A stretch of 64,000 nucleotides of DNA from a virus. Taxonomy: Duplodnaviria; Caudoviricetes. Shown piece by piece: positions 5,031 to 57,958 of the stretch (position 1 is its first letter; each line of letters begins with the position of its first letter). The notes under the pieces were generated by a model, which was not told the DNA's origin, ran no database searches, and saw nothing but the letters and a program-made list of their open reading frames with translations. The DNA lies in the IMG/VR virus record IMGVR_UViG_3300027891_000004, positions 64,001 to 128,000 of that record; one strand, given 5' to 3'. The position numbers and the translations under genes are program-made.

Positions 5031-6197
5031 ATGCCCACGCAAAAGAAACAAAAAATGACGCCAGAAAACGATTTCCGTGAAATACTCCAAGAGACATTCC
5101 AAAAAATTGCACACGCGGCCACAGAAAATGAAAAACACTTAAAAAAACAAGAGACCAACAGCAGCATGACCGAGACGGAAACGATCTCTATACTGATCGA
5201 GCCGCTTATTACCATACTGGGGTACGACAAGAACGATCTTCGGGAAATCAGACAAGAATACACAGCAAAAAAGCAAACAACAAAAGGGAACAAAAGAGTA
5301 GACATTGCGATTCTCCAACGGCAGGATGGGAAAGCAATAATGGTCTGGGAATGCAAGGCAAGAAGAGTGCCGCTCGGCAACTCAGGGGTTTCGCAGCTTA
5401 GGGGATACTTTAAAACTCATAGGGCTGCCATTGGCGTTCTTACAAACGGCATCCACTACCAGTTCTACACAAACATCGACAACCCCGAAAGTAACGAAAT
5501 GGACAACGAACCTTTTCTGGAATACAACACAGGCAATAGTCTACCTCCCAATCAACTTGATGTTTTTGAGTACCTTAGAAAAGACAAGTTTAATCTGAAA
5601 CAAATACACGAAATAGGAAAAGAACAAAAGGACATCAACAGGATCAAACGGGTACTATACAGCCTTTTTTTGGAAACAGGCCCAGACGAATTTTACCAAA
5701 TAACAGCGGCAATGGCCAAACTCGGGAAAGGACTCGCCGAATCAAAACAGATTATCAAATCCGCCTTCATACGCATGGTAGAAGACGGCGTAATCCCAGC
5801 CGAAAGCACAGGAATTTTATACAAGGAAAAATTCGACGAATGGAAAACCAGTTTGTCAGAAACGACCGTGAAACTTTTTGAAAAATTAGAAAAGTACGTG
5901 TTAAGTCTCGAAAATGTCAAAACAAACCTTTCAAGTGCGTACAAAAGCTACGCGGCCCGCAAACAATTCATGCAAATGATGTACTGCGGCGGAAGAAAGA
6001 AACTAAGAATTCTACTGCTGGGATTGAACGTAGAAGAAATGGGAAAAGCCAAAAAATCATTGGAAAACACAGAGATACAATATCACGGCAAAGAACTTAG
6101 ACTCTTTATAGAGAACGAGGACAATTTGGAGAGAGCCAAACCGATTATTGAAAGAGCATACGAAAAAGCATACGAAAAAACGACAAAAAGAAAATAG
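5031..6197 (+). CDS. Solitary type I restriction enzyme R N-terminal (HsdR_N, PD-(D/E)xK) nuclease with DUF5655-like C-terminus; likely start 5055
   Basis: Motifs ETISILIEPLITILGYD, RVDIAI...WECK, QLRGYF, GVLTNGIHYQFY, MDNEPFL; C-terminal LFEKLEKYVLSL...AKPIIERAYE. A-rich and opposite in strand to its neighbours. Confidence 0.8.
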   Translation: MPTQKKQKMTPENDFREILQETFQKIAHAATENEKHLKKQETNSSMTETETISILIEPLITILGYDKNDLREIRQEYTAKKQTTKGNKRVDIAILQRQDGKAIMVWECKARRVPLGNSGVSQLRGYFKTHRAAIGVLTNGIHYQFYTNIDNPESNEMDNEPFLEYNTGNSLPPNQLDVFEYLRKDKFNLKQIHEIGKEQKDINRIKRVLYSLFLETGPDEFYQITAAMAKLGKGLAESKQIIKSAFIRMVEDGVIPAESTGILYKEKFDEWKTSLSETTVKLFEKLEKYVLSLENVKTNLSSAYKSYAARKQFMQMMYCGGRKKLRILLLGLNVEEMGKAKKSLENTEIQYHGKELRLFIENEDNLERAKPIIERAYEKAYEKTTKRK

Positions 6198-6203
6198 CGC
6201 CAA

Positions 6204-6231
6204 CAATTCCCGGCCACGTGGCCGGGAATTG
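6204..6231. repeat. Perfect 28-bp palindrome, variant of the dispersed CCGCCACGTGGCGG family; probable bidirectional terminator
   Basis: CAATTCCCGGCCACGTGGCCGGGAATTG between convergent stop codons. Confidence 0.8.
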
Positions 6232-6250
6232 CAATTTCTGCTCGTTTCTC

Positions 6251-6925
6251 TTAGCCGTCGAGCGAGGCAATAAAATCTTTAATTTCGTTGACCTTCGCCT
6301 CAAACGCATCCCGGTACTTTGGGTCTACTTTCACGTCCGGGCGGTTCATGTGCATCCGCCCTATAGTGATCCATTGTTGTATCCCTTCGATATTTTGCTT
6401 AAACGACGCATCCATTTTATTCAAAAAGCGTTCTTTTTCCGCCAACTTATCTCCCCATTTGGAAGGATCGGATTTCGCAAAATCGCCCAAAAACTTTTTT
6501 GAAGTAGCGTCAATATCTTTCCACTTCAAATCCGAACGCAAATCTCGCAAATCCCTTGTCATCACATCTAAAACAGAGCCAGGAGTACGCGGCCCAGTCA
6601 ACGTGCTCATATCCGTATACCCGCTGCTCGGATCGTATACGTACTTGATTTCGTTGAACGCGGCCTGGCTCGACCCGGCCGGACGCGATTGCCCGCCGGT
6701 GTTACGCTCGAAAACGCTAAGATCGGCCACCCCGTCGCTACTGTAGTATTCCCTATCGCTCATATCATCCTCATCTTCTTTAACTTCATAAGTGTCGGCT
6801 ACGAGTGCCCTATAGTTCTTCCAATCTTCCCACGTAACGCCGTTCCACAAGGCAACAAGGAAAAAGTAGCCCAGAATCAAAACTGGCGTTAGCACAACAC
6901 CGATTATAACAAAAGGTATAAACAT
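6251..6925 (-). CDS. Leader-family protein with internal leader behind an N-terminal hydrophobic segment (alternative start 6763)
   Basis: Internal VADLSVFERNTGG...SQAAFN matches the family leader. Confidence 0.6.
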   Translation of the reverse strand: MFIPFVIIGVVLTPVLILGYFFLVALWNGVTWEDWKNYRALVADTYEVKEDEDDMSDREYYSSDGVADLSVFERNTGGQSRPAGSSQAAFNEIKYVYDPSSGYTDMSTLTGPRTPGSVLDVMTRDLRDLRSDLKWKDIDATSKKFLGDFAKSDPSKWGDKLAEKERFLNKMDASFKQNIEGIQQWITIGRMHMNRPDVKVDPKYRDAFEAKVNEIKDFIASLDG

Positions 6926-6982
6926 AGCAACATAGTCGGGTGAAAAAGTGTGGGAAAAACGGAAAATAGTCGCCGCTAAAGG

Positions 6983-7633
6983 TTAAATCGAAGCCGGAGA
7001 TTCATTGATTTTTTTGAGTTCTTCGACGCTCTGTTCCATCCGGTCCAAAGCGTTCATTGCTTCTTGGGCCATCGCGGACGAGCCGCCAGCCACTTTTTCT
7101 TTAATGTCTTCTCGCAACAGGTCGGCCATTACTTCGTCGGGTTCGCCGTCCGCGTTTACCGGGGTATTGATTTCTACAATTTTTTCGATGAGCGTATCTA
7201 CATCGGGCTGTATCTCGCCTGTATTGGTAAGCGAGAGCATCTTTCCTAGCAGGTCCATACCTTCCACGTTCACAAAACCTTCGGGGAACAGCATATCACG
7301 GAATTGCTCGAACGTGAACGGCGGATTTTGGATCATCTGATACATCAGACGGGACATCCCGTAGGCACTCCCAAAAAGGATGTCACGCCCGTCCCCGTAT
7401 TGGAACGTTAGTTTTGCACAATAGGCCAGCGCCGCCATAAGCAACTCCTGCTTTTCAACCGCGTTCATACCGTCGGTAGCGAGCGTTACGTTCTTCATAT
7501 ACTGTTGCCGTACCCAAACGTCGAGTTCTTCGTAATCCTTCGCCGTTATATGCTTGAGGATAACGGGGGTCCCGTTCGGCAATGTGAACGGATGTGCAAC
7601 GGTACGCGGGTCAACTTGTTTTTCTTCTGACAT
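6983..7633 (-). CDS. Putative tail assembly chaperone (paralog of 12815..13576)
   Basis: Upstream of the tape measure. Aligns with 12815 (DYEELDVWVRQQY/DLIDFNTWLKYKY; LTFQYGDG/FDFQVGIG; LFPEG/FFPNG). Confidence 0.5.
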   Translation of the reverse strand: MSEEKQVDPRTVAHPFTLPNGTPVILKHITAKDYEELDVWVRQQYMKNVTLATDGMNAVEKQELLMAALAYCAKLTFQYGDGRDILFGSAYGMSRLMYQMIQNPPFTFEQFRDMLFPEGFVNVEGMDLLGKMLSLTNTGEIQPDVDTLIEKIVEINTPVNADGEPDEVMADLLREDIKEKVAGGSSAMAQEAMNALDRMEQSVEELKKINESPASI

Positions 7634-9255: not shown

Positions 9256-10365
9256 TCATTCATTTCCCGCCTTGAAATTATACAACGGTTTTATTATTTT
9301 GACAACTTCCATCGTATCGCGGCTGTTCTCGATAATCTCGTTCATCGGCTTGTACGCCTGCGGTGCCTCGTCAATAGTCGCCCGGTTCACGGTGGACGAA
9401 CAGATTCCTTTCATCGATTTCTCGTATTCGATTAGCGTGATCTTTTCCTTCGCCTCTTTGCGGCTCATTACACGCCCGGCACCGTGCGGAGCCGAAAAGT
9501 TCCAATTGGCGTTCCCCTTCCCTACGCAAAGGAGGCTACCGTCCCGCATATTCATAGGCACCAATATACAGTCGCCGCTTCGGGCCGATACCGCACCTTT
9601 TCGTAAGATCATCGCATCCAAATCAATGTAATTGTGTACGACGGAAAACGTATCGACGATCTTGAACTTCGCCTGTTTTGATATGTCGCGGGCAATGGCC
9701 CGTCGGTTTAAGTCGGCGTATTGTTGGACGATGCCCATATCATGTAAATAATCGGACATCGGGGAGCCTTCCAAGTAGGCCAGTGCCCTATCGTCGCCTT
9801 CCTTTGTCCGACCCAACGTGTCGGCGGCCACGTTCTGATAATAGTCGCAAACCTGTTTGCCCAGATTGCGACTTCCGGAATGGACAATCAAATAGAGCTG
9901 TCCGTCATCGTCTTGCCCCAATTCAATAAAATGGTTCCCTCCGCCGAGCGTGCCCATTGAATGGGACGCACGGTGTAAATCGACGTGTTTTACGCATTTC
10001 AATTCAAATAAATCAATATCCTCGTTGAAATGATGCGGATCGTGTCGGGTGTTAAAACCAGCGGGTATGTTTTTTATAATCGCCTTGTCGAGTTGGTTTG
10101 GATCGACCCGTTTCTCCTTTATCAACGCGACGAACATCCCGCAACAACCGTCCGTCCCCACTAAATTGGGGACAATCTTATCCGTAATCGTCATGGTCAT
10201 TCCGACCGTACCGACCTGCCCGCTGTGGACATCGGGCATTACGCGGATTTGGCTTCCTTCGACAAATGGCTGGTTCAGGATATGCCGAATCTGCGCAATT
10301 GCGCCGGGTTCGGTGGTATCCGTGAATATCTTTGCCGTATTGTATGTTCCTTGTAATTCAATCAT
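9256..10365 (-). CDS. rtcB: RtcB-family RNA 3'-phosphate/5'-OH ligase
   Basis: MPDVHSG, VGTDGCCGM, GTLGGGNHFIE, VHSGSRNLG, HNYID, RKGA, SAPHGAGRVMSR, DEAPQAYK. Confidence 0.95.
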   Translation of the reverse strand: MIELQGTYNTAKIFTDTTEPGAIAQIRHILNQPFVEGSQIRVMPDVHSGQVGTVGMTMTITDKIVPNLVGTDGCCGMFVALIKEKRVDPNQLDKAIIKNIPAGFNTRHDPHHFNEDIDLFELKCVKHVDLHRASHSMGTLGGGNHFIELGQDDDGQLYLIVHSGSRNLGKQVCDYYQNVAADTLGRTKEGDDRALAYLEGSPMSDYLHDMGIVQQYADLNRRAIARDISKQAKFKIVDTFSVVHNYIDLDAMILRKGAVSARSGDCILVPMNMRDGSLLCVGKGNANWNFSAPHGAGRVMSRKEAKEKITLIEYEKSMKGICSSTVNRATIDEAPQAYKPMNEIIENSRDTMEVVKIIKPLYNFKAGNE

Positions 10366-16772: not shown

Positions 16773-17291
16773 TTACTTTTGTTGTGCGTAGTATTGCATC
16801 GCTTCCTCTTTGGTAGCGAATTTTGGCATTTCTTTTTTCGGTTGCGCCGTCCCGCCGGGCAATTCTACGGGTTTGAAAGCGTCGCCGCCCAACAGGTACG
16901 TATTGCCCAAAAACGACTTGGCTATCGCCGCCTGTTTTTTCATCAAGCGGTCATGCGCTTTCGGATCGTCTTTAACCTGTTCGCCTTCCTGTCGTATCTC
17001 GCGGCTAACTTCGCCGACCCCGGCTTTCATAGTATCGACCGCGTTATCGATTTCCGGGCGGATCGATTTGTATGTTTGCTGCGCCTGCCGCACTTCCTGC
17101 TCGTTTCGGGAATGCCAAATATCCTGCTGCGTTTCGTAGACTCCGCGCAAACCGCCTTTCAATATCTCATAGGCGCGGTCCATCGATTGGAGCGTCTGGT
17201 CCAATTCGGGCGAATTGAAGCATGACATAGCAGATACCCCGCCACGTGGCGGGGTATCCAATAATTCGTTAAATGAATTTACAACTCGCAT
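16773..17291 (-). CDS. Leader-family protein (MRV subtype); start revised from 17483
   Basis: MRVVNSFNELLDTPPRGGVSAMSCFN. Confidence 0.8.
   Translation of the reverse strand: MRVVNSFNELLDTPPRGGVSAMSCFNSPELDQTLQSMDRAYEILKGGLRGVYETQQDIWHSRNEQEVRQAQQTYKSIRPEIDNAVDTMKAGVGEVSREIRQEGEQVKDDPKAHDRLMKKQAAIAKSFLGNTYLLGGDAFKPVELPGGTAQPKKEMPKFATKEEAMQYYAQQK
17233..17258. repeat. Dispersed palindrome copy inside a leader coding region
   Basis: Perfect 26-bp GATACCCCGCCACGTGGCGGGGTATC encoding DTPPRGGVS. Confidence 0.9.
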
Positions 17292-17293
17292 GG

Positions 17294-17641
17294 TTATCTT
17301 TGGGCTATTGCCTGTTCTATCCGATCCAAACGAGTATTTGTATCGCTTTGCAACCGGAGTAGTTTTGCATCTACGTTTGCAAAACCGTTCTTTGTGGTGA
17401 TTTCCAAATTGTCCATTCGGCTTTCTAATTTTCCAAACCGTTCGTCTATTTTTCCAAATCGCTCGTCCACCTGCTTCCTCCACTCAACCAATGGAAGATT
17501 ACTCTGTATAGGCGTAGCTGAACTTATGGGACTTATGCCACTCGGCGCATTTTGCACAGGATTAAACGCCCCCAAACCGGAAACAGGGGCACCCACGGCT
17601 CCCAACGATTCAAACATACCAATATCAGCGAGCTTTTCCAT
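17294..17641 (-). CDS. Leader-family protein, coiled-coil cargo type B
   Basis: MEKLADIGMFESLG...LGAFNPVQN; DNLEITTKNGFANVDAK. Confidence 0.8.
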   Translation of the reverse strand: MEKLADIGMFESLGAVGAPVSGLGAFNPVQNAPSGISPISSATPIQSNLPLVEWRKQVDERFGKIDERFGKLESRMDNLEITTKNGFANVDAKLLRLQSDTNTRLDRIEQAIAQR

Positions 17642-21183: not shown

Positions 21184-22878
21184 TTAAGCCGCCATTTTGA
21201 ATTCATCGCCATCTTCTTCCAAACGCGACGCTTCGTCGGCGACGATAAGTTTCTTCAATTCCGGCGACATGTCCAACAAAAACGGGTACCGGGACGCCAG
21301 CGAATGGAGCTGCGCAAGGTAGACACGTTTCATATCGTCCGACGATTCGCCCAGGTACATCGCCATAGCGTTCCGCGTCTCGGCGAATACCTCGTTCATC
21401 GCCTTCGTAAACGCGGTATCTACGCTTTTTCCGCTTATCGCGTCCGCCCCGTCATCGGTAGTTGACTGGGCGATCCGCGTAGCATCGGGCAACGAATCGG
21501 CTTTGGAATCCCCGTACTTTTTAATATGGGACAACACGGCGGCCTGCGCCGCCTTCAATTCCACGTCAAGGTTTTCCAACTCACGCAAGTCGGCGGGATC
21601 GAGCGGTTTCTTAGCCTTGAGCAATTTTGCGTTCTTTTCCTCCAACTCCGCGATCCGTGTCCGAATGTCTACTGCAATAGCACGCAACCGCTTGCGCTCC
21701 GCATTCTTTTTTTCAACCTCTTCACTATCGAACGAACCCTTCGGTCGCCCGGTCGAGGCCGACTCCCACAACCCGTCCTCAGTCTGCCGGAACTTAAACC
21801 CGCCACGCGCGTCGTTCAGAAGGTTCAGAATCAACGCCTCATTGAATGAGGTAACGAGTACCTGTGCCGCGTTTCTTAATTTCTTAACCGTACTTACGAA
21901 CAGGTCTTCACCCTCTTCCAAATCGTCGGAGGCCACGATTTCGGGGTTATCCTGCATCTCCTCACGAGCGGGCACCTCCTCAAGAACAATTTCGGGCGTG
22001 TCCGGCATAGCTTCGGACAAACTTGCCACTTTCGCGGGACCTGTCGGCGGCTCAATTGTGATTTTGTAACCCTCGGCTGTTGTAAACGATTGCACGCCGG
22101 GCATGACCGGGCCCGCGCCCATTGATTCCAAAGGCGGCGCGACGGCTACTTTTATTTCTGTATGCGCCGTGCCGTGCGCATTCGCGTTTTTCGCATCGGT
22201 GTGTCCCTGTTCTTCTCTAAAAAGTCGTGTAGATTCCATAACCGGCGACCCCGCAAGATAATCATTGTTGATGTACGTAGTAATGATATTCAACGTTTCT
22301 CCCGCTTTCATTTCTTTTCGTTCGTTAATGAGCAACCCGGCCCCATCCGATAGGCTACAAGCGCCCTGTTTACGGGGCAGGATAGCGAGATGGTCGGCCC
22401 GGATGTTGATGATACGCCCGATATACGGTTCGCTATTCCATACGCCCTCATCCATGATGAGTTCGGAGAACAGACCGGTCGATATTTCCATCGGGAGCCG
22501 GTGTTTGATATGCTCAAGCAGGGTAGGGCACTTCTCCTCGGCCTTGCGTCTATCGATCCACGCTTCGGCCTTGAGCTTACCGTCCACAAAATGCGTATTC
22601 ATAATCATCCCGACCGCCTGCCGCTTGTAGACTTCGAGATCGGTCGCCGTATCGCCCCGGAACGGATGTTCGATTACGACGGGCTTGAAATTCCACATTT
22701 TGGGCGTTTTTGCCAACTCTTCGGTATCGTAATAAACGGGCCCCTGCGAGCCGGTATGGACCCCTTCGAGGATCATCGTCATCGGGGCGACGACGTATTC
22801 ACGGTCGTCAAGCGTTTCGTACCGAACCGTCGGGTCGATAGTTACGTTCCAAATGGTTTCTATTTTGTTGCGTGGCAT
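21184..22878 (-). CDS. Prohead protease (DUF2213-like) with long C-terminal extension
   Basis: YVVAPMTMILEGVH, WNFKPVVIEHP, LKAEAWID, EISTGL, DHLAILP...GACS..DGAG. Confidence 0.85.
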   Translation of the reverse strand: MPRNKIETIWNVTIDPTVRYETLDDREYVVAPMTMILEGVHTGSQGPVYYDTEELAKTPKMWNFKPVVIEHPFRGDTATDLEVYKRQAVGMIMNTHFVDGKLKAEAWIDRRKAEEKCPTLLEHIKHRLPMEISTGLFSELIMDEGVWNSEPYIGRIINIRADHLAILPRKQGACSLSDGAGLLINERKEMKAGETLNIITTYINNDYLAGSPVMESTRLFREEQGHTDAKNANAHGTAHTEIKVAVAPPLESMGAGPVMPGVQSFTTAEGYKITIEPPTGPAKVASLSEAMPDTPEIVLEEVPAREEMQDNPEIVASDDLEEGEDLFVSTVKKLRNAAQVLVTSFNEALILNLLNDARGGFKFRQTEDGLWESASTGRPKGSFDSEEVEKKNAERKRLRAIAVDIRTRIAELEEKNAKLLKAKKPLDPADLRELENLDVELKAAQAAVLSHIKKYGDSKADSLPDATRIAQSTTDDGADAISGKSVDTAFTKAMNEVFAETRNAMAMYLGESSDDMKRVYLAQLHSLASRYPFLLDMSPELKKLIVADEASRLEEDGDEFKMAA

Positions 22879-27872: not shown

Positions 27873-29024
27873 CTAAATAACGGGCTTCGGCGCAGACAAT
27901 CTCGCGTGCAAGATACCTGCCCTTCCGTAAAAGTCCGATTTAAGACGAGGCAACAAAATGCAGATTACCTTGAAGTGGATTTCAAATCCTCCTTCTGTTT
28001 GCCACTGGACGGTGGTGATATCCATACCGGTAACGGCTTGGATGGTATTCTGGTCGAGTTCGATCATGACGAAAGTTCCGTAGGGTAGGAACTCGGAGCA
28101 ATTGATCGACTTGATTTCTTTGATCTTTTCCAACCGTTCTCGGAGCGTAATAGTGCTCGTTTGCCCGGCGGTATGATCGTTATAATCATCGTCGAGGATT
28201 TGGTCAAAATCGGGGCTATGGTAGATAGCGAACGGTCCGTAGTGCCGGATGTCGTGCAGGTTCCGTCGAGCGTCGAGGATTTGCCTGTAGAGGATAGCTG
28301 GCGACCAATCGGGATCGCGTGATCCATCGACCCTTGCCCAGTTGGTAAAGACTTTTGTAAGTCTTTGCGGGTAGTTGCACACGCCGTAGACGTTTCCGCC
28401 TCCGAACTGGAAATCGGGTTCGACGCCGAGCGCGAGTCTTTCGACTTTTTCGGCGACCATCCGGGACGCCATACCTGCGGTGGTTACGTCGATGGGCATA
28501 TTGGAGTTCCGGGAGACGGCGATTTGCCGTGCGCTGAAGCTGAAATCCTTGTGGATGATCGGCAACGGCATCTGATCCATGTCGTACATGGGCCGGTCCG
28601 CGTCCCCTTTGCGAAGCCCGTCCATACTGACGGTTGCGCCGGTGATATTGGATTGCCGTTCGTACTGCCACACGGTTTTCCCTAGCGCGTTTGGCAGGTT
28701 GACGTTAAGCCCGGCGGCTCGTAGGTCGTTGAAGAACCGGAGTCGTGGCATTGCTGCGGCGACGACGGTTTCGTCGATCATAACCCAGTCATCCTTTCGG
28801 AGCGTAGCTGCGTTTGTGGTCTGCACGTTTTTGAGAACGGGCTTCCCGTCTTTCCAACCGATTTGTTGCGAGATGAGCGAGGTATGCCCGTCATCGTGCA
28901 GGAACGGTCGGATGCAGCGGGGGTCGAAGTTGTAGGTAAGCAACCGGGTGGCAACGTCGCCGGACCCGCCGATTAGACTTGCGCCGTTCGTAATAGAAAC
29001 GGGCATCGCGTTCAGATTTTGCAT
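27873..29024 (-). CDS. Major capsid protein (HK97 fold, linocin/encapsulin-like family)
   Basis: NAATLRKDDW..IDETVV, PLPIIHKDFSFSARQI, YGPFAIY, ITTVQWQTEGG...FKV, GILH; 383 aa with AAGGA RBS and terminator. Confidence 0.9.
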   Translation of the reverse strand: MQNLNAMPVSITNGASLIGGSGDVATRLLTYNFDPRCIRPFLHDDGHTSLISQQIGWKDGKPVLKNVQTTNAATLRKDDWVMIDETVVAAAMPRLRFFNDLRAAGLNVNLPNALGKTVWQYERQSNITGATVSMDGLRKGDADRPMYDMDQMPLPIIHKDFSFSARQIAVSRNSNMPIDVTTAGMASRMVAEKVERLALGVEPDFQFGGGNVYGVCNYPQRLTKVFTNWARVDGSRDPDWSPAILYRQILDARRNLHDIRHYGPFAIYHSPDFDQILDDDYNDHTAGQTSTITLRERLEKIKEIKSINCSEFLPYGTFVMIELDQNTIQAVTGMDITTVQWQTEGGFEIHFKVICILLPRLKSDFYGRAGILHARLSAPKPVI

Positions 29025-42561: not shown

Positions 42562-43470
42562 TTACCTCAATTCTGCAAAATAAAGTAATTCATCAATTTG
42601 TTCTTTTGTCGCGTCTGCCGGGTCAGACGCGTCCAAACAAACATTATCCGTCCTACCCGGAAAAGGACTTAACGCGCGAGCCAATTCCCGCGCTTGTTGC
42701 TGCGTACCGCGTTCGCCGTCGAAGCAGATAATCCTGCGTTGGAACTTTGCAATCTCGTCAAACTGCCCCCTTGTTATTTTCTTCCCGAACGTAGCCACCG
42801 CATTCTGTTCCACACGCATCGCATCGAAAACCCCTTCGCACACAATGATCGTATCGTAATACGATACGTACTGCGCCCCATACAAAAGCGATTTCAAAGG
42901 CCGCAACTCTCGCGACGGCGGGGCGGCAAGGTACGCTGGTAAAACGTCGTCAGCCGTCGTCCGCGTAAGCCACGAAACAACGACACCGTTCCGATCCGGT
43001 ACAGGGAAAAACAACCTTCGACGATACGCCCATTCCGGACTGGTATGTATCGCCATTACGCCCCATTTGTCTCGAACAGTAAACGGGTCCAATCCGCGTT
43101 CAACAATGTACTGACACAAATAACCGACATCAAAAAGGGGACGCACGCCACCAGGCGGGCTATACGTGCCGGTCGGTTTTTCAACGGGCACATTATAATG
43201 CGACGGGAGTTCAAGCTGCGAAATAAGGTTCCCGGTATTCTCGCCGGGAAACAGCACTCTAAATACTTGAGGAATTGATTTCCATCCGCAGTTCCAACAT
43301 GTAAAAAAACCCTTTTGTATATGCCAACCCAGCCAGTTCTTATCGCCACCGCAAAAAGGGCAGGGGAACCCCAAAAAATTGTCGGTAATATGCTTATCTC
43401 GAAGACCTTCGTCCCCCTTCCTTTTTACTGGGACGCCGCGACTCCGAAGAAAATGTTCCATTGTCGGCAT
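42562..43470 (-). CDS. DNA primase (Zn finger + TOPRIM)
   Basis: CPFCG...CWNCG, RLFFPV, VCEGVFDA, AVATFG, ICFDGE, DPAD. Confidence 0.9.
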   Translation of the reverse strand: MPTMEHFLRSRGVPVKRKGDEGLRDKHITDNFLGFPCPFCGGDKNWLGWHIQKGFFTCWNCGWKSIPQVFRVLFPGENTGNLISQLELPSHYNVPVEKPTGTYSPPGGVRPLFDVGYLCQYIVERGLDPFTVRDKWGVMAIHTSPEWAYRRRLFFPVPDRNGVVVSWLTRTTADDVLPAYLAAPPSRELRPLKSLLYGAQYVSYYDTIIVCEGVFDAMRVEQNAVATFGKKITRGQFDEIAKFQRRIICFDGERGTQQQARELARALSPFPGRTDNVCLDASDPADATKEQIDELLYFAELR

Positions 43471-43500
43471 AGGCTACTGGCTTTACTCAGCGGATGTTTT

Positions 43501-44001
43501 TCATTTATTTACAGCGGTGATTCGTCCAATTATTTTTTTGATATCCTTACGAGGGAAATTCCAAGCAACTTCGTCAGGCGGCAACGAAGAGCGATATACA
43601 GGATTTCGCAGTTTGCAATACTTTTCAACCAACTGCTTTGCCTCGTCTTCACAGGCGGCGAAAACATGAAATGTTCCTGAACGGTCGTAGCGCACCTCTA
43701 CCTCGTAGCAATATTTATCTTTGGTTCTATCTGTTCCTATTTTCATCGCTGGCAAAATGCGGTCAGACAAAGTGACATTTTTGATGACGTTACGGCGCCC
43801 GCTAACCGCAGGGAAAACCCATCCAACAATTGCGAACTGCCCGTTAAGTTTATTCTGCGGCAATGTTGTACAGGCCCTTGATTGATATTTCCAACATTTC
43901 TCAGCAACCAACTTTCGCGCTTCATCCTCATTCTTCGCGCATACAAAGAACTTACCAGGGAAGGTAAACGTGATTTCTACTTCATATTCTCTTTTTTCCA
44001 T
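43501..44001 (-). CDS. Protein of two internal repeats, downstream partner of the HigB-like gene
   Basis: YEVEITF...AKNEDEARKLVAEKC and YEVEVRY...ACEDEAKQLVEKYC. Confidence 0.6.
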   Translation of the reverse strand: MEKREYEVEITFTFPGKFFVCAKNEDEARKLVAEKCWKYQSRACTTLPQNKLNGQFAIVGWVFPAVSGRRNVIKNVTLSDRILPAMKIGTDRTKDKYCYEVEVRYDRSGTFHVFAACEDEAKQLVEKYCKLRNPVYRSSLPPDEVAWNFPRKDIKKIIGRITAVNK

Positions 44002-44489
44002 AGCAGATACTCCGGGTCATTATGGTAGTCCCAAATTTCCTGTATTTCAACCGCAGTAACCTTTGACCAATCTAAATTCCCGTTAGCATCAACGGGTGTA
44101 GGATCGTGTTTTGGCACAAAAACCAAACGCCACCCACCATGTAAAGCGCCAGCAAGTTGCCCAGCCCTATTACCCTCAAGACTATGAAAGTTACCGCTTT
44201 TGTCTCTCAGCCCCCGCAACTCCTTTTTATCCTTCAATTCTGCAAGGGTAATGGCCTTTTCTAGCCGTTGCAACTGCTTTATAAGGACTTTTCGGTTTTC
44301 TGGCACCACGCCAAATTCTGAACTTTCTGGATTACAGTGTTCAGCAACTTCTGGATTTTTATAGTGGATATCCACCATATTATCCACCGATTCGCACAGG
44401 ACGCCGCAGGCAACTTGATCGCCCCAGATATTCACGCCTTTTCCCAAATCGCTTACTGACCCACCGTATAGCCTTTCAAATTCGCTCAT
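43977..44489 (-). CDS. higB: HigB/RelE-like toxin domain with a 38-aa N-terminal extension
   Basis: RLEKAITLAEL...GNFHSLEGNRAGQLA..LHGGWRLVFVP...VTAVEIQEIWDYH; domain begins at SVDN|MVDIHY. Confidence 0.75.
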   Translation of the reverse strand: MSEFERLYGGSVSDLGKGVNIWGDQVACGVLCESVDNMVDIHYKNPEVAEHCNPESSEFGVVPENRKVLIKQLQRLEKAITLAELKDKKELRGLRDKSGNFHSLEGNRAGQLAGALHGGWRLVFVPKHDPTPVDANGNLDWSKVTAVEIQEIWDYHNDPEYLLWKKENMK

Positions 44490-44651
44490 AATTCTTTATT
44501 GCATATATTTTACAAAAAAAAACATCAAAAACAAAGGGTGCCGCGTTCTCGTTCCGGTATAATGTGCGGGGACGCCGATCAGATATGCGATTTTTTCGGA
44601 AAGAATCCATGTTTTTATTGACAACTCGTTGTCTATGATCAGCTCAAAAAG

Positions 44652-44676
44652 AAAAGCCCGCCTGTGTGGCGGGCTT
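44652..44676 (-). terminator. Terminator built from a palindrome variant
   Basis: AAGCCCGCC-TGTGT-GGCGGGCTT followed by a T-rich tract on the minus strand. Confidence 0.7.
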
Positions 44677-44687
44677 CAATGCGGCTT

Positions 44688-45212
44688 TTAGTATTCGCCG
44701 TCTTCCGTCTCCGATTCGGGCGGCGATATTTCGGCCAAGAATTGGTTCACCGCCTTTTTAGAGCCGAGCGGACCACCGGCCAAATTCGTTTTGACAAGCG
44801 CATTGGCTTCCGCCACAGCATAGGCTCCGAGCGAATCTTTGTAAACATCAACTTTCGCATCCTTAGCAAGCGGAAAGTTTCGAGATACGTTGGCGGCCGA
44901 CGCAAAATCGAACGGCATCATATCTTTCGGCGTCCCGGATGGGGTCTTGTGAACGTGTTCTTCCAAACCCGGCGGCACTTTGTTCTTATCCGGCCCGTCT
45001 TCGCCGTCTATCGGGATGTTCCCTATGTCCAGCGGCTCGCGTTGAAACTTGCCGTGAAACATCAGGTCAAGTTCATCGGGGCATAGAAACGATTCGCCTT
45101 TGGAATACTTCCGGTGCTTACCCTGATGTTCGCCTTCGATTACGCGAAACTTATAAAGGGGGCGACCGTCTTTTGTGGTGCGCGGCATCGCCGCTACTGT
45201 ACTTACAGACAT
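44688..45212 (-). CDS. Hypothetical protein, probably virion-associated
   Basis: Follows the decoration-like gene; GAGGA RBS. Confidence 0.55.
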   Translation of the reverse strand: MSVSTVAAMPRTTKDGRPLYKFRVIEGEHQGKHRKYSKGESFLCPDELDLMFHGKFQREPLDIGNIPIDGEDGPDKNKVPPGLEEHVHKTPSGTPKDMMPFDFASAANVSRNFPLAKDAKVDVYKDSLGAYAVAEANALVKTNLAGGPLGSKKAVNQFLAEISPPESETEDGEY

Positions 45213-46702: not shown

Positions 46703-47791
46703 CTATTGGTTGTTAGAGGGAAACGTGGAGGGAATATCCATAGCTTCTCCGAAATCGGAGTTTTCAACGCTAATGCTGGCGGCGTTATGGACAGCTTTTT
46801 CATTCTTTGCGGTTTTGCCACGTTTGGGACCGCAGCCGCTATTGGCAACACGTCCGTTACGGACCACTTCTACCTGCGGCGAAGTAGCCGAAGACGGGGA
46901 ATTACCATCGAGTTCGGATTCTTCTTCGACAACGGGCGCATCGACGGTCGGCGGATCGGCGACTTCATTGTCTTGGACGGCAATATCGGGGCGTGGAGAA
47001 GACGGGTTAATATCCGCATTTTTCACAACCATACCGCTATCGATATTATCCACTTCGATCTCTTCCGTACCGTCGGCGTTGATGATCCGTCGGTAGTTTT
47101 TGAACCGTCGGCATTTGCCGCTTTCGTTCATCAAACCGCCGCTACTTGCGTTCTTTTTCTTCAACGCTTCCTCAACGGCGTCGTCAATAGCCTGATCGAT
47201 GGTATTCGCAATCGCGCGTGCTTTCGCGTTCCGGACCAGCGCGTCGTATTTGGCGGCCTTCTCTCGCATGTTTTTGACAGACATGGATTCCATCGTGGTC
47301 GTTTCCGTAGTTGCGTAATCTTTCGACGGCATGACAGGGGCGTATTTCACGCCGTTGGCAACCGTTTTGCGGGCGTTTTTAACCTGGGCCACCGGGACAA
47401 CTGCGCTAAGTGTACCGTCGGCGTTTTTGACGATCTTCGCATTGGCGACTCGCCGGTACTTGGCACGGGAAGCCAACACGGGAACCTCGTCAACGATAGA
47501 ACCATCGCCTTCCGTGTCGTCGATAATTTCGATAATATCGCCTTCAACGGGTTCGGCTTCGGGATCATCAACCGGCTGGACAACGACAGGATCGCCGACT
47601 TCGGCGATCTGGTCGGTTTCGTCCACGTTCAAATCATCTTCGATAGTTATATCGTCCTCGTTCTTGACGACCCTGGCTTTGGATTTGTTCTTAACGGGCT
47701 TCCGGACGGTTTTTTGGGCGTTATGAATCGCCTGCAAGTTCACATCCGTCGCGCCGAGAGATTCCAAAATCGCTTGCATACTCATTGGCAT
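46703..47791 (-). CDS. Low-complexity head protein (scaffold/internal core) rich in V-x-N motifs
   Basis: About 19 [VILFA]-x-N motifs; acidic; C-terminal AMDIPST; AGGAG RBS. Confidence 0.6.
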   Translation of the reverse strand: MPMSMQAILESLGATDVNLQAIHNAQKTVRKPVKNKSKARVVKNEDDITIEDDLNVDETDQIAEVGDPVVVQPVDDPEAEPVEGDIIEIIDDTEGDGSIVDEVPVLASRAKYRRVANAKIVKNADGTLSAVVPVAQVKNARKTVANGVKYAPVMPSKDYATTETTTMESMSVKNMREKAAKYDALVRNAKARAIANTIDQAIDDAVEEALKKKNASSGGLMNESGKCRRFKNYRRIINADGTEEIEVDNIDSGMVVKNADINPSSPRPDIAVQDNEVADPPTVDAPVVEEESELDGNSPSSATSPQVEVVRNGRVANSGCGPKRGKTAKNEKAVHNAASISVENSDFGEAMDIPSTFPSNNQ

Positions 47792-54251: not shown

Positions 54252-55697
54252 TCAACAAAAAGTCAAATCCAATTTGATACTTTTTTCAAGAAGTCGTTCA
54301 AAATCAATAGACGGCGTTTGAACGCCATCCACGTCAAAATAACCACGTCGTTCATTCAAAAGGATCGCGGAAATAACGCCGTTGGTTGCAAGCCGATACG
54401 GGTAATCCCCCAACTCTTCGGGCGACAGCGGAATCGTAACGGACGACGTAGAACAAAATTCCTTCTCCCAATCTGCCCGATGCTTGTCGGCGACCATGTT
54501 CGCAACGGCCACAAACCGCATCTCTTCGGTACGCGGGTTATGGTAATCGAGCCGGACAACCGTACCGGGCAAAAGCCGAACCGAATTCCCCGACCGGGAC
54601 GCGCCCCATTCGCAGCCGAAATATGGCGGGATAGATATTCGGGATTTTGCACGTTTCAAAGAAGCGGGGACCGGCTGTAGCAAAACATGATAAGAACCGA
54701 TCTCGGCGTTCCATACTGGCAACGACACGTACCCGTTAAATGGTTTGGCAATATCGGGCGGCAACGAATCGGGCACGAGCTGTTCCGGCTGTAGTTCGGC
54801 GTCCAACTGGTTCCACACGCAAACTTCGCAGCCGCAAACGGAGTTATGGACGGGCGTAAGGGAGCCGAGTTTAAGTTTGTAGCGTCGGTCCAAGCGTTGC
54901 CGTAGTTTCTTTACCTTGAACTCCTGTTCTTTTTGCTCGGACTGCGTCTTTTTACCGCCGCCGCGTACCAAACGCCACAAGCAGCGGCAATTCGGATGGC
55001 GGGGTAACAGGGAACGCGCCTGTTCAATAGTCATACGTTTGCCTTCGAGTTCTTCGCATTTCTTGCACCGTCGGTGATCTTTGACGGTCTCTATCTGCGC
55101 TATCACCTCTTTGATATTTGCAGCTTGGTAGGCGTCTAATTTTGCTTCTGCTTCGGCTTTGGTTATTTCGTCCTGCACCGTTGTCTTGACTTTTTGTTTG
55201 TACTTATCAATCGCCTTCTCGGCGGCTTCGGTAAGCAATTCGATTTCACGCGGCGACAGGGGTTCCGACGACTCCTGCTTCTTTTTCGGGACAACGCGGT
55301 CGTATACTTTTTTCACGGCGTCCGTAACGATCTTCCCGAACCCCGTGAAAAGCCCGGCTACTTTCTTCCCGGCTGCTTTTACAAGTTCGCCGATAGCCGA
55401 GTTCTCAACGGCGATCATTTCCAATAGTTTTTCGTCGTTGTACGCCGAGTTTCTAATTTCAACGATCCCGGTCCGGTGCGATGCTCGGTACGCCTTATTG
55501 ATAACGTCTGTTATGAACTTTTCGGAATAGAACGCGGGCAGCCGTTCCTCAGCGGCGGCAAGAAAGCCCGCCACGTGGCGGGATCGGAACAGTTCCCGGA
55601 CGTTATTTTTTAACTTCGCAAAATGTATTTCGATAGCGAGGTCCGTCTCGTTGCGAAGGAAAACAATATCGGAAGGTTCGCTATGCGTGATATTCAT
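54252..55697 (-). CDS. Head morphogenesis protein (SPP1 gp7 / Mu gpF family) with C-terminal extension
   Basis: DHRRCKKC..LEG...LPRHPNCRC; contains palindrome 55567..55582. Confidence 0.8.
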   Translation of the reverse strand: MNITHSEPSDIVFLRNETDLAIEIHFAKLKNNVRELFRSRHVAGFLAAAEERLPAFYSEKFITDVINKAYRASHRTGIVEIRNSAYNDEKLLEMIAVENSAIGELVKAAGKKVAGLFTGFGKIVTDAVKKVYDRVVPKKKQESSEPLSPREIELLTEAAEKAIDKYKQKVKTTVQDEITKAEAEAKLDAYQAANIKEVIAQIETVKDHRRCKKCEELEGKRMTIEQARSLLPRHPNCRCLWRLVRGGGKKTQSEQKEQEFKVKKLRQRLDRRYKLKLGSLTPVHNSVCGCEVCVWNQLDAELQPEQLVPDSLPPDIAKPFNGYVSLPVWNAEIGSYHVLLQPVPASLKRAKSRISIPPYFGCEWGASRSGNSVRLLPGTVVRLDYHNPRTEEMRFVAVANMVADKHRADWEKEFCSTSSVTIPLSPEELGDYPYRLATNGVISAILLNERRGYFDVDGVQTPSIDFERLLEKSIKLDLTFC

Positions 55698-56425: not shown

Positions 56426-57958
56426 TTAGAATCCCATGTCGCTTAAGCCTCCCGTACTCGCACCACCTGACATATTAGGCGCGAGACTGGCGGCTTCTTT
56501 TTCTGCTGCTTCTGATTTGTTCTGTTCGGCACGCCGCGTAATCGTTCTAGCTTTCGTTTCCGACATATCGCAAAATTCCATAAGAAACGTAACGGGATCA
56601 TAAAAACGATCCAAATTGGATGCGTAGAACTTTTCAAGGAACTCAATTTGCTTGGCCCTTACCTCGTATATCTCCGTCCGGGTATCTATAGACAAATCGG
56701 GCCATTCAACTGAAAAATCATTGTTAAACGGATTTGGAACAATCCCGAACGTAACAAGACGTTGGACAACTGGCTTAATAAGGAAGGGGGTCAGATACGA
56801 TTCCTGCCGTTCCATGAGTCGTTTCTTCCAAATCACGGCATCCTGCGTAGAGGCCAACTCGCCGCGTTCGGAACCCATCAAAATACGAGCCGGGCACCCA
56901 AGTCCGATAGCAATTTGGTTTATGCAAACTTCGACATGTCCGGTAGGGTCGGCGTATGAAGACGACAACTGGTTTACGGTCGCGTTCTTAAGGGCCATCC
57001 ACCGCTGGAACTGGTTCTCGAACAATTCGACCTGCCGTTGGATTTCCGGGATGTCCAATTGAACGGTGTTGAGCAGGTTATCTGTAGCCTGTATAATGTA
57101 TCCGGGGTACGCGCCTTTGTAAAACATCTCGCCTGACGAACCGAAAATCTTCATCAGATCGAGGCACGCATTGTAAACGAGCTTCAACCGGGGCACGCCG
57201 ATTATCTCCGAAATTTCACGATTATCCGCGATGTGGACCACGCGAGTCCAATGTATCTCTTGCGTGGAAAGATCGACATGCCCGCCAGAAAACTCAACAT
57301 TAGGCGATTGGGCCTGGATACGGTACATTGTCGGATGCCCGTACCTTTGGCTATTCCGACGAATTTCTGATTCTACAATATCCACCTGCGATTCCGGAAA
57401 CGCACGTAAATACCCCAATTCATATTTTACGCCATCTTCGATGGTTACGGGTTCGTTCATCGGCTTGCCATCGTTTATCCCAATAATAAGTATCCCGTAA
57501 CTACCGATCCCGGAAAGTATATCGGCCCGGCGAAGCCAGCCCCATATATTATGTTTGCTAAAAACGGCGTCAATCTCTCTTTTAAAATCGCTATCGGCTG
57601 GCGCGTTAGAATCGAGAATAGTAGGGCGAGTCTGCCAGCATTCAAGCGGGTACAACTGAACCACGCGGTGCGCGATAGGGTTCCGGTCATACATATCTTG
57701 GTAATCAAACTTAGAGATCATTTGCGGATAGCCGAACTGGCTCGCGTAATCTCTATTGAGAGGATTGGTATTTACCTCGCCGCCGAACCCGCCGCCCATA
57801 GCCATACGACGACGGAATAGCTGTTGCATAGCGTCGTTCATAACGGAAACACTTTTTGTTTCCGGTTCTTTGTTTGTACTTACGTAAGGGGCAATCTCCA
57901 ATTCGTGCGAACCTCGCCTAGTGTCCGAATCGATCCCGTGGCTTATAACGTTGTTCAT
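56426..57958 (-). CDS. Portal protein (DUF1073-like)
   Basis: FGYP, YDRNPIAHRVV..YP..CW, YGHPTMY, IHWTRVVH, PARILMGSERGELASTQD, VEWPDL. Confidence 0.9.
   Translation of the reverse strand: MNNVISHGIDSDTRRGSHELEIAPYVSTNKEPETKSVSVMNDAMQQLFRRRMAMGGGFGGEVNTNPLNRDYASQFGYPQMISKFDYQDMYDRNPIAHRVVQLYPLECWQTRPTILDSNAPADSDFKREIDAVFSKHNIWGWLRRADILSGIGSYGILIIGINDGKPMNEPVTIEDGVKYELGYLRAFPESQVDIVESEIRRNSQRYGHPTMYRIQAQSPNVEFSGGHVDLSTQEIHWTRVVHIADNREISEIIGVPRLKLVYNACLDLMKIFGSSGEMFYKGAYPGYIIQATDNLLNTVQLDIPEIQRQVELFENQFQRWMALKNATVNQLSSSYADPTGHVEVCINQIAIGLGCPARILMGSERGELASTQDAVIWKKRLMERQESYLTPFLIKPVVQRLVTFGIVPNPFNNDFSVEWPDLSIDTRTEIYEVRAKQIEFLEKFYASNLDRFYDPVTFLMEFCDMSETKARTITRRAEQNKSEAAEKEAASLAPNMSGGASTGGLSDMGF

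Follow-up and report, generated by a model that had tools for sequence, protein, structure and literature searches.

The two overlapping minus-strand genes at positions 43501-44489 of the window form a cassette in which a HigB-family toxin gene with a leader-derived N-terminal extension is followed not by HigA but by a new partner built of two repeats. The explanation that we favour, and that we hold to be quite possible, is that of a two-gene toxin-immunity cassette whose toxin would probably act as a capsid-loaded effector. The window, i.e. the whole stretch of 64,000 nucleotides that was analysed, comprises bases 64001-128000 of one 167,820-bp contig, the source of which is a large tailed phage; positions below refer to the window unless the whole contig or all ORFs of the phage are named. 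Almost all genes are carried by the minus strand, and both reading frames of the cassette were recovered on this strand as placed in the initial annotation, with an overlap of 25 nt. The features of the cassette and its upstream border are as follows:

43977..44489, minus strand: toxin gene (open reading frame), 170 aa, consisting of an N-terminal extension, a HigB-fold domain and a short C-terminal tail
44379..44489, minus strand: leader-derived extension, residues 1-37, acidic (pI 4.05), disordered, ending in S34-V35-D36-N37
44022..44378, minus strand: predicted HigB/RelE-fold endoribonuclease domain, residues 38-156, with H102 and D154-Y155-H156 (structural match, BLASTP)
43980..44021, minus strand: C-terminal tail, residues 157-170, after the catalytic His (predicted helix H159-168)
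43501..44001, minus strand: partner gene (open reading frame), 166 aa, basic (pI 9.4), no HTH, in the HigA position
43810..43998, minus strand: partner repeat 1, approximately residues 2-64 (internal BLASTP E 6e-9; domain HMM i-E 6e-24)
43513..43722, minus strand: partner repeat 2, approximately residues 94-163 (internal BLASTP E 6e-9; domain HMM i-E 7e-28)
44653..44677, minus strand: intrinsic-terminator-like hairpin closing the upstream gene, 10-bp stem with 7 GC pairs, followed by a T run

Since the hairpin ends the upstream gene, the cassette probably begins its own transcription unit. The gene adjoining the cassette and the head genes of the window are:

42562-43470: primase, adjoining the cassette
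21184-22878: DUF2213-domain protein, 564 aa, protease-like
27873-29024: HK97-type capsid protein
54252-55697: MuF-like protein
56426-57958: portal

The toxin was assigned by profile, pairwise and structural comparisons. It matched phrog_3066, 'toxin of TA system', in the PHROGs (E 8e-6), and GraT, a HigB-family toxin (6f8s), by phmmer (E 0.002). Compared with Pfam directly, it gave no family at E <= 0.1 and did not reach the gathering score of PF05015, and the NCBIfam and PADLOC scans gave no match; the closest cellular HigB relative scored 26.1 bits against PF05015, for which the cut-off is 27. A profile of the eight closest toxin relatives retrieved 127 proteins at E <= 1e-5, most of which are 110-115 aa long and bear the name HigB or 'killer protein' in their annotation, with PF05015 assigned to many of them. 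By BLASTP, toxin residues 41-158 aligned to a full-length cellular HigB of 113 aa with 35% identity (E 2e-22). The AF2 model of the toxin is of moderate quality (pLDDT 61, below 50 for residues 1-35), and the top 50 entries of a structural search with this model were all RelE-superfamily toxins. The best match by VIA-align was chain 4mct_D, HigB of P. vulgaris (Z 7.7, rmsd 2.8 A, 86/93 residues), with model residues 39-156 set against chain residues 0-92. The start of the domain right after S34-V35-D36-N37-M38, which had been read from the sequence before, agrees with these alignments, the structural one beginning at residue 39 and the BLASTP one at residue 41; the extension preceding it counts 37 residues instead of the 38 given in the initial annotation.

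[quoted passage not shown] Aligned through the cellular relative, H102 of the phage toxin corresponds to the region of His54 in P. vulgaris HigB, and D154-Y155-H156 form the end of the domain, as do Asp90-Tyr91-His92 in HigB, with model residue 156 opposite chain residue 92. Judged from sequence and model, the domain looks like a catalytically competent member of the HigB family; we consider it likely that the toxin has RNase activity, and it is probably a ribosome-dependent mRNA endonuclease. Compared to HigB of HigBA (Proteus vulgaris 4mct/4w4g; GraT 6f8s; PF05015), the phage toxin thus has the same fold, the catalytic His and the C-terminal Asp-Tyr-His, and the order of a toxin gene overlapped by a second gene is also the same, but the leader-derived extension of 37 residues and a tail of 14 residues past the catalytic His are added. 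The coding DNA of this tail overlaps the start of the partner gene; among the first eight relatives, the tail occurs only in the toxin 43977-44489 and its sister P0002. An insertion in the last hairpin of the phage toxin is absent from standard HigB and common to one cellular subgroup. In addition, the phage cassette differs from HigBA in its occurrence as two copies in a lytic-looking large phage, and in a toxin that is acidic instead of basic. Typical RelE-family toxins are not acidic, and the acidity of the phage toxin may therefore weaken its binding to the ribosome.

Leaders of one family are carried by about 25 small proteins of the phage that are otherwise unrelated to one another and mostly encoded among the head-assembly genes, and the extension of the toxin derives from this family. 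A leader HMM based on 15 tagged window proteins other than toxins recovered about 19 ORFs in the window and 25 in the genome. The initial annotation had described the extension of the toxin as loosely resembling this leader, and this wording is apt in that the core S2-x-F4-E5-x-L7 is kept at residues 2-7, yet neither of two leader HMMs scored the extension. S-x-F-E-x-L is present in 14/25 leader ORFs of the phage and, within the first 15 residues, in 1/1337 non-leader ORFs, which is the toxin 43977-44489 itself. For this toxin and its first eight relatives, the 15-sequence HMM gave no match at E < 10; the HMM of a second leader sub-type scored the toxin of the other copy of the cassette in this genome, hereafter copy B, at E 0.11, and the toxin 43977-44489 was absent among the matches listed (down to E 2.6). 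When compared by hhalign, the extension and the leader alignment were in register (P 0.011), and the hydrophobic anchors of the extension align with those of the relatives. The junction reads S-V-D-N in the toxin, where the relatives show T-F-N, V-F-N or [TV]-[DE]-N. The F-[NQ] end, which nearly every leader has, is missing in the toxin 43977-44489, and its tag may therefore be vestigial. The leader protein sequence shared by copy B and a DUF4160-type gene showed no similarity to the extension of this toxin; its leader DNA likewise showed none to other leader DNA and thus gives no sign of recent recombination. The tag of the toxin 43977-44489 is the most decayed one in the family.

The only [VI]-x-N motif of the toxin lies exactly at the junction. 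The same motif was found 17 times, mostly as V-K-N-A, in a 362-aa scaffold-like protein encoded at 46703-47791 on the minus strand, compared to 4.8 expected occurrences (0/2000 shuffles), and six times in its 231-aa neighbour, compared to 2.0 expected. These sites of the 362-aa and 231-aa proteins, which have the form of the toxin junction, are candidate sites of the head protease.

Long-form relatives of the toxin allow the extension to be traced at the level of the family. In several of them, the first HigB strand is immediately preceded by a canonical leader with T-F-N or V-F-N as its end, and one combines an M-S-M-F-N leader end with a [TV]-[DE]-N junction. A profile of the relatives' N-termini, run against all 1362 ORFs of the phage, matched the leader-tagged genes 5933-6415 (E 3e-7) and 6772-7356 (E 5e-8) as well as the leader cargo at 16773-17483 of the window (E 4e-7). 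Over its first 42 residues, the toxin of copy B shares 50% identity (E 1e-10) with the N-terminus of the DUF4160-type gene, the cargo of which is unrelated. In a tree of HigB domains alone, which was midpoint-rooted only, a single branch (support 100/98) set the 15 long forms apart from 18 short forms taken as a sample, and the toxin 43977-44489 and its sister P0002 were nested among the leader-bearing forms; this tree did not include P0045, which is a fragment, the fusion P0024 or some 100 other short forms. As far as these sequences indicate, the whole long-form HigB clade is leader-tagged and the toxin 43977-44489 descends from a leader-bearing ancestor. The earlier proposal of a toxin captured behind a leader accordingly applies to the family, where the tree, the canonical leaders of the relatives, the reciprocal profile matches and the leader of copy B point to it, and not to the extension of 43977-44489 taken by itself, which fails the leader HMMs and has no F-[NQ] end. 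That the domain had retained its own Met was not borne out, as the ancestral start position is occupied by Leu in basal leader-bearing relatives, and M38 precedes that position by one residue. As the main start of translation, M38 is unlikely: its upstream context is GC-rich coding sequence, the context of M1 is AT-rich, like that of most genes of this phage, and the extension is conserved as protein in the relatives. Use of M38 as a second start beside M1 is conceivable.

The partner takes the place of HigA and is of a kind undescribed so far. Scans of Pfam (E <= 0.1), NCBIfam and PADLOC revealed neither an HTH nor an antitoxin family in it, in line with its initial description as a non-HigA protein, and its tandem two-repeat nature was confirmed by an internal comparison in which the halves were 36% identical (E 6e-9). 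The repeat unit, present in two copies, is a rare alpha/beta domain of about 65 residues. Pfam DpnD/PcfM (PF14207) was matched weakly (19.8 bits, cut-off 25), and a four-repeat relative of the partner, P0014, exceeded this cut-off with 27.5 bits. The AF2 model of the partner is a confident alpha/beta two-repeat protein (pLDDT 85.8), for which Foldseek against the PDB, BFVD and VIA-align wide returned only generic alpha/beta sandwich matches (best Z 5.5). The ESM Atlas gave unnamed Bacteroidota clusters of about 76 aa, apart from one weak row with the automatic name 'RNA polymerase inhibitor family', which was rejected because its value of 0.81 is too low to be trusted. When 1.84 billion representatives were searched exhaustively with a profile, 32 proteins with the partner domain were retrieved, in two-repeat, four-repeat and many free-standing forms of about 70 residues. 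The free-standing relatives are found in arrays of small genes of mobile elements in Bacteroidales, a spirochaete and Breznakia, without HigB. Compared to DpnD/PcfM-like proteins (PF14207), to which the repeat is linked by the weak matches and by the free-standing relatives of about 70 residues in Bacteroidales and spirochaete mobile elements, the domain of the phage partner differs by its tandem arrangement, its basic character and its association with toxin genes. A literature search on DpnD/PcfM and DUF2213 found no usable result.

The linkage between toxin and partner extends beyond the window. The genome carries the cassette twice at different sites, and copy B, located in the tail operon with the tape-measure gene on one side and a tail gene on the other, is 70% identical to the window cassette in the toxin and 50% in the partner. 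Relatives of toxin and partner share contigs of 9389, 35798 and 19157 bp, as judged from equal contig sizes in bp. An HMM of the partner domain matched exactly three proteins in the genome, each encoded directly downstream of a leader-tagged toxin-type gene. The third of these cassettes was observed on the minus strand at 137727-138855 of the whole contig, where a DUF4160-like gene is followed by an overlapping DUF2442-like gene. The first gene encodes a leader-tagged DUF4160-like protein of 194 aa, the leader of which is 50% identical to that of copy B; the second (137727-138386) encodes a DUF2442-like protein of 219 aa with one C-terminal partner domain (HMM E 1e-18), and the metagenome protein P0023 has the same architecture. 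DUF2442 is the usual neighbour of DUF4160. The presence of the domain in these three proteins ties it to leader-tagged cassettes of two unrelated toxin types. A further observation concerns P0024, a metagenome protein from a 2112-bp contig in which a canonical leader is joined to the N-terminal two thirds of a HigB domain and to one partner repeat; its HigB portion is without the Asp-Tyr-His end, and the protein looks as if a deletion had joined a toxin gene to the partner gene next to it.

The proteins of the toxin family have pI values of 5.2-5.9, those of the toxin-linked partners are 8.4-9.9, and the free-standing relatives of the partner domain are mostly acidic. Compared to classical RelE-family pairs, the charges are thus reversed, with acidic to neutral toxins and strongly basic linked partners. 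A predicted complex of the HigB domain and the partner obtained a score of 0.02 and a mark of 0.32, values that do not weigh on either side of the question of binding. On balance, it is somewhat probable that the partner neutralises the toxin. The retention of the pair in two diverged copies, the fusion P0024, the complementary charges and the toxin-first order as in HigBA were counted in favour of a toxin-immunity pair, and the free-standing relatives without a HigB neighbour were counted against the partner as neutraliser.

A two-gene toxin-immunity cassette could operate as follows. The first gene would encode a HigB-family mRNA endonuclease fused behind the disordered leader-derived extension of 37 residues, and the product of the second gene would most likely bind the toxin, which is unusually acidic, and silence it in the cell that makes it. 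Judging from the capsid-targeting sequence of phage T4, the leader would probably serve to bring the toxin inside the procapsid. Inside the procapsid, the head protease, which would be of the DUF2213 type, may cut at V35-x-N37|M38 and thereby free a near-native HigB domain. This domain would be injected together with the DNA and cut host mRNA early in the next infection. Silencing of the toxin by the partner is a likely part of this scheme, whereas loading, cutting and injection of the toxin 43977-44489, which are proposed by analogy, are possible with considerable doubt. The head context provided by the DUF2213 protease-like, HK97-type capsid, portal and MuF genes in the window was counted in favour of this scheme. 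In its widest form, the proposal says that the phage loads HigB via a cleavable N-terminal tag and injects it against host translation or defence, that a new class of basic, repeat-built immunity proteins protects the producer, and that their domain is common to HigB and DUF4160 cassettes; this form we regard as possible, if doubtful.

The capsid targeting sequence of T4 is likewise a short N-terminal tag on unrelated small proteins, namely IPI-III and Alt (PMC9026906, PMC3012670). It is removed from these proteins by the prohead protease, and Alt is an injected enzyme. Both the T4 tag and the phage leader lie near head-assembly genes and have a conserved residue pattern at the end of the tag that suits a protease site. 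In contrast to the T4 tag, with which it has no sequence similarity, the phage leader is longer (about 30-40 residues), its putative cut is after Asn instead of Glu and the protease is of the DUF2213 type and not gp21; furthermore, loading and cutting are putative in the case of the phage leader.

A cytoplasmic cassette of the toxin-antitoxin type accounts for part of the same evidence, and we regard it as possible, if doubtful. The decayed extension would then be a leftover, the toxin 43977-44489 would no longer enter the capsid, and the pair would act in the infected cell, e.g. in host shut-off, competitor exclusion or plasmid-like addiction, with the partner as a new type of antitoxin. The failure of the leader HMMs on this toxin while relatives and copy B still score, as well as the loss of the F-[NQ] end, fit such a leftover, and both were also counted against the favoured reading. 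The same applies to the position of the toxin gene beside the primase, behind its own terminator and apart from the head genes; in addition, the better-tagged copy B in the tail operon could cover the packaged role. On the other hand, the extension has been kept at full length (37-40 residues) with its anchors conserved in the toxin and P0002, although HigB is active in cells without a leader. The toxin also still has the exact S-x-F-E-x-L core and the V-x-N junction, and the partner has no recognisable DNA-binding domain for autoregulation.

A further reading does not take the partner as the neutraliser. Its domain may instead be an accessory of leader-tagged toxin cassettes, such as a nucleic-acid-binding regulator or a loading chaperone to which the tagged toxin would be bound, which we consider unlikely, and it is just as unlikely that the toxin is silenced otherwise, e.g. 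as a zymogen through the uncut extension. An accessory role is suggested by the DUF4160 cassette, which has the domain only as an appendage at the end of a DUF2442-like protein that may itself be able to neutralise, an architecture repeated in P0023 from a metagenome. The strongly basic nature of the linked partners and the free-standing relatives in mobile-element gene arrays without toxins point in the same direction. Against this stand the lack of any other candidate neutraliser encoded near either HigB cassette, the constant linkage to toxins while the number of repeats varies from 2 to 4, and the confinement of charge complementarity to the toxin-linked forms.

The nearest cellular relative found for the toxin raises the question of a role in counter-defence. 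Its gene was observed in a bacterial defence island (L003:5352-9451), in which genes for a Pycsar effector, a Pycsar cyclase and AbiEi come before those for HigB and a PD-Lambda-2_B-like Xre-peptidase; in this island, no third PD-lambda-2 gene was found before a convergent GTPase gene. PD-lambda-2 consists of a HigB-like protein, an Xre-peptidase and a third gene, and the HigB-like component rescues the toxicity of the Xre-peptidase (Vassallo et al. 2022, PMC9519451). The phage toxin resembles this system in that its nearest cellular relative (35% identity) is paired with a PD-Lambda-2_B-like Xre-peptidase, whereas the phage cassette has neither an Xre-peptidase nor a third gene and neither phage protein matches any PADLOC model. 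A decoy reading, according to which the HigB-like protein mimics the first component of PD-lambda-2 and blocks the defence without cutting RNA, is kept alive by the location of the relative directly upstream of the PD-Lambda-2_B match (E 2e-37) and by the rescue of the second component's toxicity by the HigB-like one (PMC9519451), but it is very improbable, as neither the toxin nor the cellular relative matches any PADLOC model, all HigB catalytic residues are kept and a decoy that does no harm would hardly call for a partner of its own that is inherited with it.

With regard to the toxin-immunity reading, the presence on a toxin of the tag that is common to about 25 small phage proteins points to a modular conversion of toxins to virion cargo. 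Toxins of toxin-antitoxin systems are bacterial self-poisons and weapons of abortive infection. Such modular toxin cargo would be comparable to Alt and the internal proteins of T4, yet would be an RNase in need of its own antidote; we know of no T4 cargo that is an RNase toxin with its own immunity partner. The partner domain is rare (32 among 1.84 billion); it stands in for HigA, gives the pair a charge pattern opposite to that usual for toxin and antitoxin and also occurs as a fusion to the protein that accompanies another, unrelated type of toxin. If the partner neutralises HigB, it would represent a new antitoxin fold, and as an accessory in loading or regulation it would provide a handle on the management of tagged toxins.

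No DNA relative of this phage was found in the phage collection and no relative of the toxin in IMG/VR. A Shine-Dalgarno-like motif was observed upstream of only 18/110 long ORFs of the contig, and start contexts are A/T-rich; the sparse motifs fit a host that initiates translation without Shine-Dalgarno pairing, e.g. one of the Bacteroidota. Rfam gave no match above gathering scores at 43200-44900, where all sub-threshold matches lie on or around the terminator hairpin. Upstream of the toxin gene, no Bacteroidetes-type TAnnTTTG promoter motif was found and sigma-70 scans were at chance level. A perfect palindrome, GACAAC-TC-GTTGTC, was observed at 44620-44633 between the upstream terminator and the toxin start, with a single exact copy in the window; it could be an operator or a product of chance. 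Finally, one gene among those of the leader cargo encodes an enzyme of RNA repair:

9256-10365, minus strand: RtcB RNA ligase (Pfam E 5e-66)

RtcB joins RNA ends of the type left by RelE/HigB-type and anticodon nucleases, and the same phage thus encodes both RNA cutters and an RNA repair enzyme.
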